Assembly (NCBI GenBank): GCA_035542755.1
Contig: DATKKU010000009.1
Location: 1 to 39,959 of the forward strand
Direction of reading: 5' to 3'
DNA from: Candidatus Binatia bacterium
Lineage (GTDB): Bacteria; Patescibacteriota; Saccharimonadia; Saccharimonadales; UBA10212
DNA: 39,959 nucleotides
Shown here one piece after another: positions 11,661 through 39,534 of the stretch (its first letter is position 1; each line of letters starts with the position of its first letter). The position numbers and the translations under genes are program-made. A model generated the notes under the pieces. That model saw nothing but the letters and a program-made list of their open reading frames with translations. It was not told where the DNA came from and did not search any database.

Positions 11661-11755
11661 ACTTGGCACCAATTATACGATAATTACAGATATCGGTAAA
11701 ACGTCGATATAACTTGCGTTATCTCTATAATTGTGGTATTATTTGTTCAAAGATT

Positions 11756-11785: not shown

Positions 11786-11837
11786 GACAATCTAGTTAAA
11801 GATTAAGTTCAAATTAGCGTTCGGTTTTGTTAGGCAT

Positions 11838-11884
11838 CTAGCTCACGCTCAAGCTGTTCAAAAGACGGTTTAAGTGTGAGCTAG
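11838..11884. promoter_or_regulatory. 9-bp perfect inverted repeat (ctagctcac ... gtgagctag) just upstream of the island operon SD; candidate operator or leader hairpin
   Basis: Arms at 11838-11846 and 11876-11884 with a 29-nt spacer. SD aaggag (11898-11903) and ATG 11912 follow. Confidence 0.4.
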
Positions 11885-11911
11885 ACCAATCCTCAACAAG
11901 GAGATCCGCTA

Positions 11912-13378
11912 ATGCGTGGACGCCGCCGGTACTACACGGTGCGGGCATCCCGGTGGCTGGACGACCACTACTGGGGGCCTTTACTCGCGTACGCGAGTTG
12001 CCTGGTGGTGCTTCTCGGACTGGCCTGTGCTTTCTACGGCGCTGCCAAAGGAGTGCACAACAGCCACATCCACAGGCGCCAGCAATTCGGTCAGCTGATC
12101 TACTCGGTCGGGGAGTCAGCTCATGACAACTCGCCCAGAGCGATTGAGCTCCGCAAGCGCGCCGCAAGCAGGCTCGTGGAGCTAGACCTTCGTTACATCC
12201 AGATCTACGGCAAAAACAGTACGTACTTGCCGCTCAGCAACCACCGTCTGAAGCAGGTGCAGCAGGTAGCCAAGAATGGTCGCGCCATCAACGTGGGCGA
12301 TCTCAACGCTTGGTCCTTTAGTGCCTTTCTGGCGGCGATGGGGCGCTGGTACGTGCTGTTCACGATTTTCTCAGGTTTCGGACTATTCTTCCTGGTGAAC
12401 TTCCTGTTTCAACGGGACGACGGTCATCACAGCCGTTACCTGGCGGAGCTCCCCTGGAACAAACCCTGGCCTTGGGTCGTAACGTTGACTCTTGGGCCTG
12501 TGGGCTGGCTCGGCATGCCGTGCAGTTACCTGATGCTCGACTCCGAGGAGGAGGTTGGAGAAGAACTGCCCGTAGTCGAGCACGAAGAAGGCCTGTATGC
12601 GGACGCCGACGATCCCGCACTAGACCCTCAGGTTCTGCGCAGCTACGTCAGCGCTCCGGCTTCTGCTAGGGAGCTGTACATAAACCTGAGCATAGAGGCA
12701 CTTAGGTTGATTCGTGAAAGACGTCGGGTTCGTCTCGAGGAGAAGATTGACGAGACCCGGGATGAGATTCAGCACCACGCCGACATGGTTCGGATGTGCA
12801 ACACAGAGCTCAACGAGCTGGTGTCAAAGCGCCGAGCTCTGGACGAAGTTGTCGACGAACTCGAAAACTTCGGACCGGAGAAGCGGGCAGAGGAATTCGA
12901 AAGAATTCTCAGCCTGCCGGGCGTAATTGCGGTGCAGGTGGTCAACAGCCGCATCCGCCTAATCGTCCGCGCCAGCATCAGTTACGACGACGCTCTCTAC
13001 GATCTGGGAGATTGGCGGATGGACTTCGGTCCTGACACCACTCACATCGATGCTTACGAGCTTCGGTCCGGCATCAGACCAGAGTGGGATGGCAGCTATC
13101 CGGCCTACCGGCTTGGACGCGGCAACTTCTGCTTTGGCAACCGGGAGGATGAGATCAACCAGCACCTGAGCAAAGGCCAGTACCTGGAGGCTATGGCGCT
13201 TGCAACAGAGTGCCTAAACTCCGTCAACCGTACGGATCAAGAACGGATCCCATATGCCTTCAAGGAGGTTGCAGTCGATGCAGAACAAGAATCAGGAGAC
13301 GGTAATCAGACCGATGGTTCGGATCCCCCTGCACCTGTGGCAGAGGATGATGACCTACGTCATGCTCTGCCCGGTTGA
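11912..13378 (+). CDS. multi-TM, coiled-coil protein with a C-terminal Cys-containing alpha/beta domain (candidate non-canonical E2-like component or effector)
   Basis: 488 aa with SD aaggag 8 nt upstream. Hydrophobic segments lie at about aa 22-44, 132-166 and 185-208, followed by an acidic linker. A heptad-rich helix spans about aa 252-330. The C-terminal domain (aa 331-450) follows a helix, four strands, GNFCFG (Cys407, nt 13130-13132), helix pattern. Confidence 0.75.
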   Translation: MRGRRRYYTVRASRWLDDHYWGPLLAYASCLVVLLGLACAFYGAAKGVHNSHIHRRQQFGQLIYSVGESAHDNSPRAIELRKRAASRLVELDLRYIQIYGKNSTYLPLSNHRLKQVQQVAKNGRAINVGDLNAWSFSAFLAAMGRWYVLFTIFSGFGLFFLVNFLFQRDDGHHSRYLAELPWNKPWPWVVTLTLGPVGWLGMPCSYLMLDSEEEVGEELPVVEHEEGLYADADDPALDPQVLRSYVSAPASARELYINLSIEALRLIRERRRVRLEEKIDETRDEIQHHADMVRMCNTELNELVSKRRALDEVVDELENFGPEKRAEEFERILSLPGVIAVQVVNSRIRLIVRASISYDDALYDLGDWRMDFGPDTTHIDAYELRSGIRPEWDGSYPAYRLGRGNFCFGNREDEINQHLSKGQYLEAMALATECLNSVNRTDQERIPYAFKEVAVDAEQESGDGNQTDGSDPPAPVAEDDDLRHALPG

Positions 13379-13898
13379 GATCAACGGGTTCGGCATCGTC
13401 AACTTCGACAACCCGCAGGTCATCTTGCTAGAGGATGTGTTCATCCTCGATCAGTTGGCCACTCCGGGGAGCGTTGAAACCGACCCGCTGGCTCTCGGCC
13501 GTTACATGCACCAGTTGCACCTGGACGGCGGCGACTCCAGCAAGATCAAGTTCCAGTGGCATAGCCACGTCCAGATGCCGCCCTTCTTCTCGGCAGTCGA
13601 CAAGGACAACATCGAGAATTGGCCGGGGGACTGGCTGGTCAGCCTGGTCCTGAACCAACGCGGCGAGTTTGAGTGCCGCTACGACAGCCTGCGTCCACTA
13701 CGCTTCAGTCAAGTGCTGGAGCCAGTCATCGACGTAACGGTGACCGCCGCCGTCGCTGACGAACTGGCAAAGGAGGTGGCCGGCAAGGTCAAGCAGCCCC
13801 GGTGGGGAGGCCTTGGCACCAGGTCGCTGACGGACGGCAGCGTCGATCCAGACGCCTGGACCCCGACGACTCCGCAGTTCCTCAACCTGGCGGGCTAG
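13278..13898 (+). CDS. JAMM/MPN+ (JAB) metallopeptidase
   Basis: Conserved Glu in CPVEINGFG and an exact HxHx7Sx2D motif (HSHVQMPPFFSAVD, nt 13560-13601). The start is set at ATG 13278 because a strong SD aaggagg (13262-13268) lies 9 nt upstream. The listed ORF begins at 13254. Confidence 0.85.
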   Translation: MQNKNQETVIRPMVRIPLHLWQRMMTYVMLCPVEINGFGIVNFDNPQVILLEDVFILDQLATPGSVETDPLALGRYMHQLHLDGGDSSKIKFQWHSHVQMPPFFSAVDKDNIENWPGDWLVSLVLNQRGEFECRYDSLRPLRFSQVLEPVIDVTVTAAVADELAKEVAGKVKQPRWGGLGTRSLTDGSVDPDAWTPTTPQFLNLAG

Positions 13899-13902
13899 TC
13901 CG

Positions 13903-14571
13903 ATGCACGTAGACTACTCCGGCCAGACCGATATCTTCGACCCCAAGGCCTTTTCCTGGCCGGTGAATGTCATCGGCGTCGGGGGCATCGGCAGCGCAGT
14001 CATACTGCCGCTGGTGAAGCTAGGTCTTGCAAGTTCGCTCCATCTGTGGGACCCTGATTTCGTTGAGTTTCACAATGTGCCGGCCCAGCTGATCTATCGG
14101 GCCAGCGACGTGGGGAGAGCCAAGGTGGAAGCGGCCGCGGACGTTTTGCGGCCGTACCTTTCGCCTTCGTGCGAGCTGGTTCTCCACCAGGAACTTGTCG
14201 GCCCGCAGACACCACTCTCCGGAGTGGTCATCGGCGCCGTCGACAACATGAAAGCACGTTCCGATATATGGGAGGGGGTGAAATTCAACCCCGACATCCC
14301 TCTCTATCTCGACGGCCGAATCGGCGGCGAGCAGATGCAGCTACTTACGCTGAATCCGTTCGACATCGACGCCATCGAGTACTACGAGAAGACATGGTTG
14401 TTCCCGGATGAAGAAGGAGCCGAGCTGCCCTGCGCAGCCCGGACCGTGATTCATCCACCCGTCGTGTTGGCTGGGCATATCATCGCCCAGTTAACGCGAT
14501 TCGCACGCGATCTTCCGACCCGGCAGTACATCGACGTGCACGTTGGGACCACGCAGTTCATCGTGGTCTAG
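13903..14571 (+). CDS. minimal ThiF/MoeB/E1-like adenylyltransferase
   Basis: 222 aa with Rossmann GVGGIG (aa 25-30), WDPDFVEFHNVPAQ, GRAKVEAA and AVDNMKAR motifs. Its only cysteines are Cys90 and Cys177, and there is no CxxC pair. The start lies 4 nt after the JAB stop. Confidence 0.85.
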   Translation: MHVDYSGQTDIFDPKAFSWPVNVIGVGGIGSAVILPLVKLGLASSLHLWDPDFVEFHNVPAQLIYRASDVGRAKVEAAADVLRPYLSPSCELVLHQELVGPQTPLSGVVIGAVDNMKARSDIWEGVKFNPDIPLYLDGRIGGEQMQLLTLNPFDIDAIEYYEKTWLFPDEEGAELPCAARTVIHPPVVLAGHIIAQLTRFARDLPTRQYIDVHVGTTQFIVV

Positions 14572-14615
14572 GCGTGCCAACGATGCCACCCCGAAAGAAA
14601 AGGAGATACCGTACC

Positions 14616-14852
14616 ATGACCGAAGTCGCAGCAGAGACGACCCCGCAGTGGGTCCACGTCGCCATCCTCGGTGGCGACACCCAGCAGCTCGATTTCACCG
14701 CAGGCATGACCGTCGGGCAGGCGCTCGAGGCCGCTGGCCTCACCCGCCAGCGCGGCACCATGGTCCAGGTCAACGGCGTACCCGCCGATGACGACCAGGA
14801 GCTCGAGCCGAACTCCGCGGTCCAGATCACCACCCAGGTCAAGAACGGCTAG
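14616..14852 (+). CDS. ubiquitin-like beta-grasp protein (ThiS/MoaD/Ubl-like), C-terminal Gly
   Basis: 78 aa from ATG 14616 (SD aaaggag 14599-14605). It has a ThiS/MoaD-like pattern (MVQVNGVPA...LEPNSAVQITTQVKNG-stop). The listed ORF starts at GTG 14574, which would add a basic 14-aa extension. Confidence 0.75.
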   Translation: MTEVAAETTPQWVHVAILGGDTQQLDFTAGMTVGQALEAAGLTRQRGTMVQVNGVPADDDQELEPNSAVQITTQVKNG

Positions 14853-14904: not shown

Positions 14905-14953
14905 GAACACCGTGGGCGAGAGATTGAAATACATCTCCTCGCCCACGGTGTTC
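14905..14953. terminator. hairpin 2 at the island right edge (16 bp perfect stem, 17 nt loop)
   Basis: GAACACCGTGGGCGAG ... CTCGCCCACGGTGTTC. It lies between the convergent Ubl and purM genes and has no clear U-tract. Confidence 0.45.
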
Positions 14954-36598: not shown

Positions 36599-36623
36599 TT
36601 TACTTTACTAATACTTATATTAG

Positions 36624-36632
36624 TGGTATAAT
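36624..36632 (+). promoter_or_regulatory. extended -10 promoter (TGgTATAAT) for the high-GC orphan gene
   Basis: AT-rich host-like promoter, followed by SD aaggagg (36655-36661) and GTG 36669. Confidence 0.5.
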
Positions 36633-36668
36633 TTATTTTACACAGCCCTTTTACAAGGAGGTTCAGTA

Positions 36669-37400
36669 GTGACCGTTCAGATCGAGCCGTACAGGCGCGA
36701 CGTGGTTCTGCAGACCGTGATGGACGACGAAGCTGTTCGCAGGCACGAGCTTGTGGAGCAGCTGGGCTTCAACCCAGAGCTTCAGCTCGTCGACGAGCAC
36801 GGCGACGAGGCAGCCAGCTTCTACCCGGAGCTGGCCGGCTTCGAGTTGAGCATCTGGACGCTCTTTCACCAGAGCGTCTACAGCAAGAACAAGGAGGAGT
36901 GGTCGGGGTATCACTTCGACCGCATTCCCACCGAAGTGCTGTCGCATATCGGTTTCGCTCAGGAGTTCGGCGGCTTTGACGACATCGAGCTGTGGACTCC
37001 CGAGAGGAAGGTCGAGCTGGATCCGATGGCCGTCGGCGTTGTCGGACATCGTCTGGGACACAGCGAGCTTCGCCACAGCCTCGGCCAGAACTTCGCGTTC
37101 AACCGCAACGCCCGCTTCTTCCCAATCGTCCGCTGGGGCGAGAGCCTGGAGGCGTTCGACCGCATCAAGGAACGTGCTCTTCTCAACACCATTCAGCTGA
37201 CCCACGGCTTCCGCAACAAGGTCGTTCCGCTGGGTGTGCTCAACTACATCGAGGAGCAGCTTCATAGCGGCGTCCGCAGCCCGTTCTGGATTGACAAGGC
37301 TTCGCGCCTTGCAGGCAAGCACTGCGGCGAGCGCCGCGTCTGGGTGTCGCCGCGCGAGGGAGTCGCTGCAAACGTCTGCGGCGTCTGCGGCGCACACTGA
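36669..37400 (+). CDS. hypothetical protein on a high-GC islet, with a C-terminal H/C cluster
   Basis: 243 aa with GTG start and a strong SD. The plus frame is chosen over the mirror minus ORF because of the SD, promoter and downstream terminators. The C-terminus has HC(218-219)...CxxC(237-240)..H243. Confidence 0.65.
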   Translation: MTVQIEPYRRDVVLQTVMDDEAVRRHELVEQLGFNPELQLVDEHGDEAASFYPELAGFELSIWTLFHQSVYSKNKEEWSGYHFDRIPTEVLSHIGFAQEFGGFDDIELWTPERKVELDPMAVGVVGHRLGHSELRHSLGQNFAFNRNARFFPIVRWGESLEAFDRIKERALLNTIQLTHGFRNKVVPLGVLNYIEEQLHSGVRSPFWIDKASRLAGKHCGERRVWVSPREGVAANVCGVCGAH

Positions 37401-37415
37401 ATCACTCCGCTGTCA

Positions 37416-37484
37416 GGGCAGGTAACCCGATTTTTCGGTTGCCTGCCCGGCGGTCTGGGAGCACCCCAGACCGCCGCCTTTTTT
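37416..37484 (+). terminator. tandem GC-rich hairpins ending in a T6 tract (rho-independent terminator)
   Basis: GGGCAGGTAACC(c)G...CGGTTGCCTGCCC, then an 11-bp perfect stem GGCGGTCTGGG-agcac-CCCAGACCGCC followed by gcctttttt. Confidence 0.8.
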
Positions 37485-37528
37485 CAATCTTTCGTTATCA
37501 AGCCCTATCAACTTCTTAGTAACAGAGT

Positions 37529-37534
37529 TATAAT
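37529..37534 (+). promoter_or_regulatory. -10 box (gTTATAAT)
   Basis: It lies upstream of SD aggag (37546-37550) and GTG 37558. Confidence 0.4.
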
Positions 37535-37557
37535 GTCCGTGATTTAGGAGTTAGCCG

Positions 37558-38406
37558 GTGTCATCTATCCCTCAGCCCTCGCGCGAAACATATGCTTGGA
37601 CCTACGACCCTTCCAATTGGCAGGGTGTTGATATATTGCAGGGCGAAAATGAGAACCTGCCGCCCGCCATGGCGCCAAGAGCCAAAGTACGAGAATACTC
37701 CCGCGCCCGAATTAACCTTCGTGCCGGGCTAAATTTGGCGCTGCTAAGCGACCATGTAGAAATGGTCCGCTACGTAGAGGGGACTACCTTTGACCCGCCG
37801 CAAGACCAATTACCTGACGGCACGGTCGTGACACTGGAAAGTGCCCGGCTAATCTATGAGGCCTCTGGCAACCAGCAGGACGAGCAACAGGCCGAAGACG
37901 ATGAACCTCAGGTAGCAGTTTTTAAGGACTACCCCATAACGCGCCCGCACCTAAAGTATTGGCTGGATTATCAAACGCTGGAGCCGGAGCAACAGCTTGG
38001 TCTGCTGGGCACCGAGATAATCGGTATTTCGGACCCCCAAATAGCCTATATACACCAGGTCCATTGGGGAGTCCTTAGAAGTTCTAAAAACGGCTCGCGC
38101 GCGGTCCAGTTATTTAATTTTCAAAAACCACACCTGGCGGAGTTCGGCGGTTTGCCGCTTGTTAAACTTGGGTCTGTTAGTAAAGAAGACGTTGAGGCGA
38201 TGTGGGCTATTGAACTACCTATAGAAATCGGTCAGGTAAAAAACTTGGGGACGCTTGCCCTAGATGGCTTTTATACTGCGGCCATGACTAAAGTTCTTGG
38301 CATTGACGTTATACATATGACCGAGCCCAAGGATAACGGCGGCCGCCGCGGGCCGCGCCTACCCCACAAAAAAAGCCTGCCTAAGTTTTTGCCCAGCCGC
38401 AGCTAG
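37558..38406 (+). CDS. hypothetical protein (282 aa)
   Basis: Long ORF with an SD and host-like GC. No family was recognised. Confidence 0.6.
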   Translation: MSSIPQPSRETYAWTYDPSNWQGVDILQGENENLPPAMAPRAKVREYSRARINLRAGLNLALLSDHVEMVRYVEGTTFDPPQDQLPDGTVVTLESARLIYEASGNQQDEQQAEDDEPQVAVFKDYPITRPHLKYWLDYQTLEPEQQLGLLGTEIIGISDPQIAYIHQVHWGVLRSSKNGSRAVQLFNFQKPHLAEFGGLPLVKLGSVSKEDVEAMWAIELPIEIGQVKNLGTLALDGFYTAAMTKVLGIDVIHMTEPKDNGGRRGPRLPHKKSLPKFLPSRS

Positions 38407-38605
38407 ATATTTGTCCTATCCGCCAGTCAGGCTAAGTTGAAGTATTGATTATTATATGTTAAAGTATGCCTAGCGTGCGACGGGTGTTTTTGACCCCCGC
38501 CATAGCACCTAACAATTTGCCTTACGAACCACCTGAAAGATTAAGGCCAAGCCCCTATGGGGCTAGGCTTAACCCGGGCTTCGGCCCCAATCTACGGGAG
38601 GCTGC

Positions 38606-38920
38606 ATGAAGCGTTTGCTCATGGTACTTTTCTTCCTCGGCGGCCTGGCGCTGGCTGTCTACGTCGGCGTCTTCGTGGTGCTGATGAACGGCATCAGCGA
38701 CACCGTCAACGGCATCAAGGCCACCCCCACCGATGCACACCAAATCGCTTGGGGGCTTGTGCAGGTCTGCGTCCTTGCCGAGGCAGTGGCCGGCAGCATC
38801 TTGCTCGTCTTCTGGCTCATCGCCGGCGTGCTCTTCATGAGTGACGATGGCTTCCGCGGCCGCCCCCTCAGCCGCGGCGGAATCCCGTTCCGTAGCTCCG
38901 GCAAGTGGCCCGGCTTCTAG
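38606..38920 (+). CDS. small membrane protein on a high-GC islet (104 aa, 2-3 TM)
   Basis: SD gggagg upstream, hydrophobic MKRLLMVLFFLGGLALAVYVGVFVVL... and ...VAGSILLVFWLIAGVLFM. Competing same-locus ORFs lack an SD and hydrophobic logic. Confidence 0.6.
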   Translation: MKRLLMVLFFLGGLALAVYVGVFVVLMNGISDTVNGIKATPTDAHQIAWGLVQVCVLAEAVAGSILLVFWLIAGVLFMSDDGFRGRPLSRGGIPFRSSGKWPGF

Positions 38921-38937
38921 GTTCGTTCGTGCAGGCA

Positions 38938-38967
38938 GCCCACAGTCCGGGCAACCGGACTGTGGGC
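38938..38967 (+). terminator. 13-bp perfect hairpin with GCAA tetraloop
   Basis: GCCCACAGTCCGG-gcaa-CCGGACTGTGGGC, then gcacaaattttta (weak T-tract). Confidence 0.55.
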
Positions 38968-39027
38968 GCACAAATTTTTATTAACTACCCCTAATGAAGC
39001 ACCCTATTATCTTCTTTGCAGCAGGGT

Positions 39028-39033
39028 TATAAT
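39028..39033 (+). promoter_or_regulatory. -10 box (gTTATAAT)
   Basis: It lies upstream of SD agagagga and ATG 39064. Confidence 0.4.
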
Positions 39034-39063
39034 TAGCCTAAAGTTCAGAGAGGATGCCTACTT

Positions 39064-39534
39064 ATGAAATTTGATAAGAACCCCCCCACAGACAAGCACA
39101 AGCACGGCCTGGTTTTTGAATCCGAGCACGACGAAGTTGAAGCAGTGGCCGCTGCCTATAGAGAGGTCGTAAATCAGAAGGCCAAGTCAGGTAAGATTAG
39201 CGATATCAAAAAGCACGAGCGCGATTTCTCGCAGTGGGGAAATTTCCCGGACCAAACAATTCTGACCAATCATCCTCTGCAGATAGCTTTGCTGTTAGAA
39301 GGCTTTTATGGCCGAACTGCTGAGGCCGTTCGCGAGATTGTGGCCAGCTGTTTTGAACCGGCTTTTGATAGTGACGCTATAGCCAGGCGGATAGACTTGG
39401 GCGAAAAGGCCTTTCAGCTGGCCGGGCTAATAAAATTAGAGTACGACAACGATACTTTGGACCAAATGCTAGACGACCACGGCGTGTCGCTGTTCGCCAC
39501 GCCCGCAGAAGCCCCCGAACACCCGTTTGACTAG
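39064..39534 (+). CDS. hypothetical protein (156 aa, acidic, helical)
   Basis: ORF with a promoter and SD. No family was recognised. Confidence 0.55.
   Translation: MKFDKNPPTDKHKHGLVFESEHDEVEAVAAAYREVVNQKAKSGKISDIKKHERDFSQWGNFPDQTILTNHPLQIALLLEGFYGRTAEAVREIVASCFEPAFDSDAIARRIDLGEKAFQLAGLIKLEYDNDTLDQMLDDHGVSLFATPAEAPEHPFD

Follow-up and report, generated by a model that had tools for sequence, protein, structure and literature searches.

We describe here a small gene cassette from a Candidatus Binatia bacterium (GTDB lineage Bacteria; Patescibacteriota; Saccharimonadia; Saccharimonadales; UBA10212) and focus on its first gene, which we call X. The stretch of DNA analyzed, hereafter the window, comprises 39,959 nucleotides (nt) of the forward strand (GenBank assembly GCA_035542755.1, contig DATKKU010000009.1). 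The cassette holds four tightly packed genes on the same strand: X comes first and is followed by genes for a JAMM/JAB metalloprotease (JAB), a ThiF-type activating enzyme (E1), and a ubiquitin-like protein (Ubl) (Table 1). X encodes a membrane-anchored, coiled-coil protein whose conserved C-terminal domain carries one invariant cysteine. On balance, we read it as the probable conjugating enzyme (E2) of a bacterial Ubl-conjugation operon.

An AAGGAG (Shine-Dalgarno-like) sequence lies upstream of the ATG of gene X, and the frame translates into the 488 amino acids (aa) that an earlier, sequence-only reading of this DNA had quoted. Since X has hundreds of homologs and a conserved operon context, it is a real conserved gene and not a chance open reading frame (ORF).

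Table 1. Features of the cassette and its DNA surroundings in the window (residue numbers are those of the protein concerned)
Feature	Position	Strand	Description
Gene X	11912-13378	+	488-aa membrane-anchored, coiled-coil, Cys-domain protein; putative functional E2
Membrane region of X	11966-12535 (aa 19-208)	+	Transmembrane segment TM1 (19-49), helical loop of ~90 aa, TM2 (143-167), Trp-rich kinked segment (185-208)
Acidic disordered linker of X	12536-12655 (aa 209-248)	+	Predicted local distance difference test (pLDDT) <50 over 210-248
Long helix / coiled coil of X	12656-12862 (aa 249-317)	+	Single helix in the AlphaFold model
C-terminal Cys domain of X	12863-13279 (aa 318-456)	+	Conserved core of the X family
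Cys407 codon of X	13130-13132	+	TGC; sole invariant residue of the X family; proposed thioester-forming Cys
JAB/JAMM metalloprotease gene	13254-13898	+	214 aa from ATG 13254 or 194 aa from ATG 13314; overlaps X 3' end
Minimal ThiF-type E1 gene	13903-14571	+	222 aa; GVGGIGS nucleotide loop; Cys177
E1 Cys177 codon	14431-14433	+	TGC; crossover-loop cysteine
Ubl gene	14574-14852	+	ThiS/SAMP2-like beta-grasp; weak SAMP2 and ThiS matches
Sigma-70-like promoter match	11704-11731	+	TCGATA-16-TATAAT; 10/12 positions matching; weak evidence
Inverted repeat upstream of X	11837-11885	.	21-nt arms, 81% complementary, 7-nt spacer; 26 nt upstream of X start
Inverted repeat downstream of Ubl	14905-14953	.	Perfect 16-nt repeat with 17-nt loop; 53 nt after Ubl stop

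Architecture of X

The N-terminal part of X had been described from the sequence as a transmembrane bundle. Kyte-Doolittle windows agree for TM1 and TM2, which are clearly hydrophobic, and the third segment is present as well but weaker and rich in tryptophan. In an AlphaFold2 model of the full-length protein (built on a 10-sequence alignment), the membrane part forms helices at residues 12-62, 145-169, and 185-194/196-208, with a kink in the third segment at the invariant G195-P196. This region is the fastest evolving of the protein, with 23-34% identity among close relatives, whereas the Cys domain retains 52-64%. Its sole well-conserved features are the Gly-Pro kink and a motif between TM2 and TM3, LA(D/E)LPW(R/N)KPWPW (also written LA(D/E)LPW(R/K)KPWPW). 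The charge bias considered under the positive-inside rule favors neither orientation in the membrane.

Two further elements seen in the sequence-only reading lie between membrane and C-terminal domain, and both stood. The acidic stretch is found at aa 209-233, within a linker of low model confidence whose length and sequence vary across homologs. The heptad-like helix that follows (about 70 residues) shows a family-wide hydrophobic periodicity peak at 3.5 residues, and the PDB profile matches in this part are all generic coiled coils. X is thus probably dimerized by this coiled coil.

The C-terminal Cys domain, modeled alone from a 147-sequence alignment, reaches a pLDDT of 96.2 and a predicted template-modeling score of 0.89. 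Its elements come in the order claimed before: a helix (322-333), four strands (338-344, 347-358, 361-372, and 381-386), the Cys loop, and three helices (411-420, 424-435, and 440-449). In the numbering of the domain model these are H5-16, E21-27, E30-41, E44-55, E65-68, C90 (equal to C407), H94-103, H107-118, and H123-132. The loop contains Y396-P397-x-Y399 (YPxY) and then F-C407-F-G.

At its 3' end X carries an acidic tail (aa 457-488) that is absent in all homologs and overlaps the JAB frame by up to 125 nt (13254-13378), which suggests that X in this lineage no longer has its ancestral stop codon. Within this tail, a database copy of X (P0001) differs from the window at two residues.

One invariant cysteine

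Among 147 aligned homologs, Cys407 is the sole invariant column, and 97% of 155 domain copies retain it. The sequence-only reading had named an unrelated fold together with a non-conserved Cys407 as evidence against its proposal, and this combination was not found. It had been called a lone cysteine, which is incorrect: X has six, at positions 30, 39, 204, 296, 407, and 434, and C434, also within the Cys domain, is kept in 92/155 copies. Other strongly conserved positions are Y363, D364, G366, D367, R385, P397, Y399, F406, F408, G409, A427, and N439. His418, 11 residues after Cys407, is invariant only in the close X subfamily and is kept in 69 of the 155 copies overall, and the 147-sequence alignment contains no invariant lysine.

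Two readings of this pattern were considered and rejected. A Cys-His protease does not fit as no histidine is conserved family-wide (H418 in 69/155), and a metal-binding protein does not fit as only one cysteine is invariant.

A family without a name

The X family is large once the search is sensitive enough. An exhaustive hidden Markov model search of 1.84 billion representatives yields 538 clusters (50% identity) with E <= 1e-3, and 178 of them reach E <= 1e-30; a word-indexed search gave 10 clusters only. In the databases these homologs are called 'hypothetical protein', apart from one 'ZapB' misannotation. In line with the sequence-only reading, which recognized no family by eye, the X sequence has no match in Pfam, NCBIfam, PADLOC, or the PDB, where sequence searches return coiled-coil noise only (GajA and an SMC-related protein). 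Profiles of the X family find no family in Pfam or the PDB either; in the PDB profile searches, run with full-length and domain-only alignments, there were coiled-coil matches plus two chance matches and no E2.

Comparing 152 family members (the first 10 clusters and those newly listed by the profile search), we find that most have two to four predicted transmembrane segments, while a few have none and carry two tandem C-domains. In two loci a second, paralogous cassette lies directly downstream of the membrane-type cassette (L002:10062-13488 and L016:3980-6531). Its soluble X paralog, of 479 aa, consists of two tandem modules of coiled coil and C-domain (BLASTP against X, 3e-14), of which only the second keeps WFCFG. 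The genes after it come in the order Ubl (ending RNG), JAB, and E1, which differs from the membrane-type order. By analogy, such a tandem protein is reminiscent of an inactive UEV-like copy joined to an active E2 copy.

Two other homologs deviate in form. One from Candidatus Uhrbacteria is 590 aa long and has a much longer coiled coil. Another (L017:5001-6470) matches X by tblastn over aa 5-488 at 44% identity, yet its frame is interrupted and the longest stop-to-stop stretch is 251 aa; it could be a pseudogene or an assembly error.

Partner genes and the ubiquitin-like protein

The three genes behind X encode recognizable components of Ubl chemistry. JAB matches Pfam Prok-JAB weakly (18.7 against a cut-off of 25, E = 1.7e-3), and among solved structures archaeal JAMM1 is nearest to it (5lda_A, E = 5e-7). 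The JAMM motif, E(INGFG)...HSHx7Sx2D, is complete in all 10 cassettes read. The E1 scores 62.2 bits with Pfam ThiF (PF00899; cut-off 28.1), and its best NCBIfam and PDB matches are ThiF and MoeB. Its 222-aa sequence has neither a CxxC zinc motif nor a fused E2. The crossover-loop Cys177 aligns exactly with Cys184 of Escherichia coli ThiF and is invariant in 96/96 homologs, among which G25xGGxG30, D50, K74, D114, and C177 are each at least 95% conserved.

The Ubl reaches 19 bits with the SAMP2 profile, below the cut-off of 27. Judging by an upstream AAGGAG, its true start is probably ATG 14616, which would give a protein of 78 aa. Here it ends in ...QVKNG with the stop codon directly after, and Asn-Gly-stop is likewise the end in nine of the 10 cassettes read. 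The tenth and most divergent cassette has a Ubl ending in ...GNGRG (L020:5676-5942) and might be the sole case in which JAB trimming is needed to expose the reactive glycine. Pfam and PADLOC matches point to no other E2 candidate in any cassette.

A sulfur-carrier or biosynthetic pathway of the ThiS/MoaD/CysO/QbsE type has to be weighed at this point. Here, the E1 would make a Ubl thiocarboxylate, Cys407 would be a persulfide relay or acceptor, and JAB would hydrolyze a Ubl-product adduct. The ThiF and MoeB matches of the E1, the ThiS/SAMP2-like Ubl, and an invariant cysteine in both E1 and X all suit this idea, and JAMM proteins do act in the CysO and QbsE sulfur-carrier pathways (e.g., Mec+ on CysO-cysteine). 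Yet none of the cassettes has a gene for a rhodanese, a cysteine desulfurase, a PP-loop ATPase, or any other biosynthetic protein, and a membrane anchor with a coiled coil is unexpected for a sulfur relay. Moreover, the Ubl ends in NG rather than GG, and the cassette is an accessory island of deviant guanine-cytosine (GC) content with variable flanks, not part of a metabolic operon. We regard such a pathway as very improbable.

Conservation and mobility of the cassette

The order and strand of X, JAB, E1, and Ubl are identical in all of the approximately 14 distinct loci, from genomes and metagenomes alike (the frame of X being interrupted in the one homolog mentioned above). Two further loci with X were reached through the most divergent E1 relatives, one of them from Candidatus Uhrbacteria, for a total of about 16. 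Homologs occurring without E1, Ubl, or JAB neighbors had been named as evidence against an E2-like role; every homolog with a readable context adjoins all three genes. Nor were any E1 relatives found beside a recognized E2 instead of X; the divergent ones still have X. One E1 relative (43% identity) lies on a contig (P0254, JGI 3300056388) among many small ORFs and an AAA_25 gene, with no X-sized gene nearby. This context looks phage- or plasmid-like, and the system on this contig may be a variant that lacks X or that travels on a mobile element.

All named sources of the cassette are Candidatus Saccharibacteria/Saccharimonadales, except for the one Uhrbacteria, and its taxonomic distribution is patchy. 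Cassette GC exceeds that of the flanks in 8/8 loci (0.60 against 0.50 in the window), and the flanking genes vary between loci. In the window, glycosyltransferases and an alpha/beta hydrolase lie on one side and purM/purE/purK on the other. Because the cassette is GC-richer than its flanks, sits between housekeeping genes in the window, and has different neighbors in different loci, it has the marks of a module that is accessory to candidate phyla radiation (CPR) bacteria and moves horizontally among them. No convincing flanking direct repeats or tRNA were found as marks of integration. A phage origin of X was also pursued and found no support: tblastn of INPHARED with the coiled coil and C-domain gave no match, and a pattern scan of IMG/VR gave no relative.

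Some lipid-related neighbors recur. PLDc_2 genes (phospholipase D/cardiolipin synthase-like) adjoin the cassette in two loci, and in another two the neighbors encode very large proteins with a GDSL-lipase domain (L001:4248-5708, L002:4506-5507, L005:6742-9552, and L007:988-3630), which may reflect shared synteny or coincidence.

Several features of the window's DNA itself complete the picture. The promoter match upstream of X (Table 1) belongs to a region with three promoter-type sites, against 1.5 +/- 1.2 expected from shuffles, which is not significant alone. The inverted repeat just before X is a possible operator or regulatory hairpin, and the one behind the Ubl gene, which has no T-run, a possible terminator hairpin of the cassette. 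Elsewhere in the window, a second GC-rich stretch (36600-39534; 0.55-0.58 against about 0.50) contains ORFs without a Pfam match, including a near-complete antisense overlap (36663-37397 on the minus strand and 36669-37400 on the plus strand), and may be another acquired island.

Relation of the Cys domain to the UBC fold

The sequence-only reading had likened the C-terminal domain to the UBC/E2 core. In terms of element order, which is all that was compared, the domain model has the UBC-type arrangement (helix, four-stranded meander, Cys loop, and two to three helices), with Cys407 between strand 4 and helix 2, the place of the catalytic cysteine in E2s. Foldseek was run against 350,542 PDB chains and the top 50 were inspected. 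A search with the full-length model was uninformative (best E = 0.34), after which the domain was modeled and searched alone. The best-matching known folds are then those of the UBC superfamily, as proposed, but all of them fall below significance. UBE2L6 ranks first (E = 0.36, probability 0.47, template-modeling scores 0.42/0.40, 145 columns), UbcH7 and UbcH8 come second and third, and the two UBE2L6/UbcH8 alignments span the whole Cys domain. Further down are the RWD domain of GCN2 (rank 18), the UEV domain of TSG101 (30), and Atg10 (44), together with the coiled-coil RWD proteins Csm1 and CENP-O at ranks 15, 20, and 23. The best viral fold match of the C-domain is an uncharacterized 420-aa protein of Siphoviridae sp. 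ct96x5 (BFVD A0A8S5PR93, probability 0.97, TMq 0.53, E = 0.088).

Profile alignment points in the same direction. With hhalign, X is collinear with four human E2s over 106 columns, at a score of 20.0 and a probability of 4%. Cys407 is placed on Cys85 of UBE2D2, and YDLGDW on the E2 motif YxGGxF (YQGGVF). In 200 column shuffles the mean score was 11.8 (standard deviation 2.2) and the maximum 19.2, with at most 52 aligned columns. Pfam, on the other hand, shows little. Three X C-domains gave nothing at E <= 10, and a scan of 72 diverse C-domains at the same threshold returned scattered single matches only. None of the 72 matched the UBC clan, for which the profiles UQ_con, Prok-E2_A-E, RWD, UEV, and those of the Atg3/Atg10 type were considered. 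The AsnC ligand-binding domain, found in 2/72 C-domains (E = 0.016), was rejected since the model is a four-strand meander and not ferredoxin-like.

The HPN motif, which canonical eukaryotic E2s have some 8-10 residues ahead of the cysteine, is indeed absent from X, as stated before (the loop reads Y396-P397-A-Y399-R400...C407). It is also missing from bacterial E2s such as BilB and from the bacterial '6d' E2-like proteins described by Iyer et al. (PMC10557695, PMC1779556), so that HPN does not define the wider UBC superfamily. BilB is instructive in a further respect: this 'CEHH' protein was unrecognizable by sequence until its crystal structure showed an E2, and it combines the missing HPN with a long loop before the catalytic cysteine (PMC10557695, PMC11601596).

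X might nonetheless be a Cys-dependent Ubl transferase of non-UBC fold, i.e., a convergent new E2/E3-like class whose likeness to E2s is that of any alpha+beta meander. Template-modeling scores of 0.3-0.42 lie in the twilight zone, unrelated alpha+beta folds (the CorA N-domain, the polo box, and designed proteins) also appear among the Foldseek matches, and Pfam contains no UBC signal at the sequence level. The strands of X are moreover much longer (7-12 residues) than those of E2s, and its cysteine precedes helix 2 by only four residues. Against convergence speak the recurrence of E2, UEV, RWD, and Atg10 in the top 50, the best E2 alignments that cover the entire domain, and the collinear hhalign result, which sets Cys on Cys and outscores 200/200 shuffles. 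A non-UBC fold seems to us unlikely. The best reading of the Cys domain is a UBC-like fold (E2/RWD-type) that has diverged strongly; that it is homologous to the UBC fold is plausible though not proven, whereas an E2-like function of X is well supported by context and conservation.

Comparison with known conjugation systems

A close parallel in gene content is BilABCD (Bil, Type I/II), a bacterial ubiquitination-like antiphage system, which likewise unites four functions in one operon (Ubl, Cys-dependent E2, JAB/JAMM, and E1) without an E3. The close X subfamily even resembles BilB in having a histidine 11 residues after the cysteine. The differences are considerable, however. BilD, a large E1 of IAD-AAD-CYS architecture, has a zinc site, whereas the E1 described here is a single 222-aa ThiF domain without CxxC. 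BilA of the characterized Type II system needs JAB trimming, whereas our Ubl already ends at glycine. Likewise, BilB is soluble, whereas X is anchored in the membrane and has a coiled coil. Gene order and host range (CPR) differ as well. No Bil model in PADLOC matches X, JAB, or Ubl (X has a chance-level GajA match, JAB a generic JAB model at E = 0.031, and Ubl nothing), and the E1 matches BilD weakly (2e-5, about 100 residues). By profile match and E1 architecture, the cassette does not appear to be a Bil system.

Archaeal SAMP/UbaA/JAMM1 systems, along with ThiS-ThiF and MoaD-MoeB, share the minimal ThiF/MoeB-type E1 with a crossover-loop cysteine (ThiF C184). The small ThiS/SAMP2-like Ubl and the JAB also fit, the nearest relative of the latter, JAMM1, having been crystallized with SAMP2 (5lda). 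SAMP systems, on the other hand, have no E2 and no membrane partner, and SAMPs end in Gly-Gly. Here an obligate fourth protein with a Cys domain heads the operon and the Ubl ends in Asn-Gly. Judged on these features, the cassette would not be a SAMP/UbaA/JAMM system: the E1 type and JAMM agree with one, while the Ubl end and the extra Cys-domain protein do not.

Another role for X, which the sequence-only reading had also raised, is that of a dedicated effector or target. The E1 alone would conjugate the Ubl in a SAMPylation-like manner, X would be modified or would sense Ubl conjugates and thereby switch its membrane domain (e.g., a pore or membrane-disrupting oligomer), and JAB would reset the system. 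JAB and Ubl are indeed nearest to the archaeal JAMM1-SAMP2 pair, which acts without an E2, and the E1 has the size of ThiF/UbaA and its crossover-loop cysteine. Two to three transmembrane segments and an oligomerizing coiled coil are common in membrane effectors, and the fold match of X to E2s is not significant. X has, however, no invariant lysine, its sole invariant residue being a cysteine, and its transmembrane part is the least conserved and its soluble C-domain the most conserved. Soluble paralogs without membrane segments keep the Cys module and the same partners, and the FCFG-centered conservation would be left unexplained. Overall, an effector or target is an unlikely role for X.

Type II CBASS (cyclic oligonucleotide-based antiphage signaling system) Cap2/Cap3 and Bub (6E/DUF6527) systems are comparable as bacterial E1/E2/JAB-type modules in accessory islands, and over its adenylation domain the E1 matches the PADLOC 'E1-E2' (Cap2-like) models at 6e-10. 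In Cap2, E1 and E2 are fused, there is no separate Ubl, and the CD-NTase itself is conjugated. Bub relies on fusions (Ubl-E2 or E2-E1), on serine oxyesters, and on a DUF6527 protease (PMC11601596). The cassette has none of these features of Cap2 and Bub.

Among eukaryotes, membrane E2s include the tail-anchored Ubc6 and UBE2J1/2, which act on substrates of endoplasmic-reticulum-associated degradation, and Atg3, which lipidates Atg8 (with the lipid phosphatidylethanolamine). They would share with X an E2-type domain with a catalytic cysteine at the membrane, which brings conjugation to targets close by, and Atg10 is among the weak fold matches of X. Their membrane attachment is through a tail anchor at the C-terminus or through an amphipathic helix, whereas X has an N-terminal multisegment anchor and a coiled coil, and no sequence relationship was detected. 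Kinetochore proteins such as Csm1, CENP-O/P, Spc24/25, and Mad1 show the same sequence of a long dimerizing coiled coil and a C-terminal RWD domain; these RWD domains have no catalytic cysteine and are protein-interaction modules, and as their likeness to X is not significant we claim no homology. Finally, our literature search retrieved no paper linking CPR bacteria or Saccharibacteria with a Ubl system and none describing a transmembrane-anchored bacterial E2.

Proposed mechanism

Taking these observations together, we consider it fairly probable that X carries the Ubl on its cysteine, as the functional E2 of a conjugation system that is new, tethered to the membrane, and Bil/SAMP-like. What the data show directly is which genes the cassette holds and in what order, how far they are conserved, their catalytic motifs, and the domain topology of X. 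The chemical steps below are inferred from what is known of these protein families, and the cytoplasmic orientation, dimerization, target, and biological role of X are inferred as well. The minimal E1, presumably a homodimer, would adenylate the C-terminal glycine of the ready-to-use Ubl (with its Asn-Gly end), and its crossover-loop Cys177 would then take over the Ubl as a thioester. Transthioesterification would pass the Ubl on to Cys407 of X. Anchored by its N-terminal transmembrane segments at the cytoplasmic face and probably dimerized by the coiled coil, X would deliver the Ubl to a membrane-proximal target, from which JAB would remove it again. The C-domain is placed in the cytoplasm because it must meet the E1 and Ubl, which are assumed to be cytoplasmic.

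The evidence for this proposal comes from several sides. X, JAB, E1, and Ubl form an obligate partnership with no other E2 candidate, the only invariant residue of X is a cysteine, and the adenylation residues of the E1 are intact. The Gly-stop end of the Ubl, the full JAMM motif, the E2s at the top Foldseek ranks, and the Cys-on-Cys alignment fit in as well. So do the conserved C-domain beside a drifting membrane part, the tandem paralog with one cysteine, the precedent of BilB, and the GC content and patchy distribution. The notion of a membrane-tethered, oligomeric E2-like enzyme put forward in the sequence-only reading is partly supported: the membrane region is confirmed, and position, invariant cysteine, and topology support the likeness to E2s; its oligomeric part is deduced only from the coiled coil.

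Critically speaking, a number of points weigh against a functional E2. No Foldseek match reaches E <= 1e-3, the best template-modeling score of 0.42 is under the 0.5 convention for the same fold, and the bacterial E2s (Cap2, BilB, and Bub) are absent from the top 50. The hhalign probability is low, UBC-clan matches are lacking, X has no HPN, and His418 is not conserved beyond the close subfamily. With three transmembrane segments, the R-rich N-terminus of X would face outward if the C-domain were cytoplasmic. SAMP conjugation works without an E2, and as JAB and Ubl are closest to the E2-less JAMM1-SAMP2 pair, the cassette need not logically include one. Lastly, there are no defense genes nearby and no relatives in the phage collections searched.

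A more far-reaching version would make X a new class of membrane-embedded Ubl transferase, either convergent or an extremely diverged UBC, that leaves soluble proteins alone and moves the Ubl with its Asn-Gly end onto a lipid head group (comparable to Atg3 and Atg8-PE) or onto an envelope, incoming-phage, or host-contact protein at the membrane. We think this improbable. If true, ultrasmall CPR epibionts would possess ubiquitin-like membrane tagging, and the tandem soluble paralog would be a built-in UEV/E2-like pair.

Biological significance

Bacterial Ubl conjugation (CBASS Cap2/3, Bil, and Bub) was shown to be real only recently, and each new type of operon brought unexpected chemistry. The present cassette is probably a further operon of this kind, in which a minimal E1 is paired with a membrane-anchored, E2-like family not described before. 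X represents a previously unannotated family in the E2 position of this operon and, if it is indeed an E2, would be to our knowledge the first bacterial conjugating enzyme built into the membrane. The full cascade would be very compact: a ThiF-sized E1 without zinc site or CYS domain, a ready-made Ubl of ~78 aa, a JAMM protease, and one Cys domain. As such, the cassette would link archaeal SAMPylation, which has no E2, to the E1-E2 cascades known from Bil and from eukaryotes.

The components also lend themselves to experiment. In vitro thioester assays are within reach with the E1, the Ubl, and the soluble part of X (aa 249-458), all of them small proteins, and a Ubl ending in ...K-N-G would leave a tryptic remnant of +171.064 Da that is distinctive in proteomics.

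For the organisms themselves, the genomes of Saccharibacteria and Uhrbacteria measure roughly 1 Mb. That a four-gene module is kept and horizontally spread in genomes of this size argues for a strong selective benefit. As the cassette is accessory, GC-deviant, and horizontally moving, a role in conflict and defense or in envelope and host contact is more likely than a housekeeping one.

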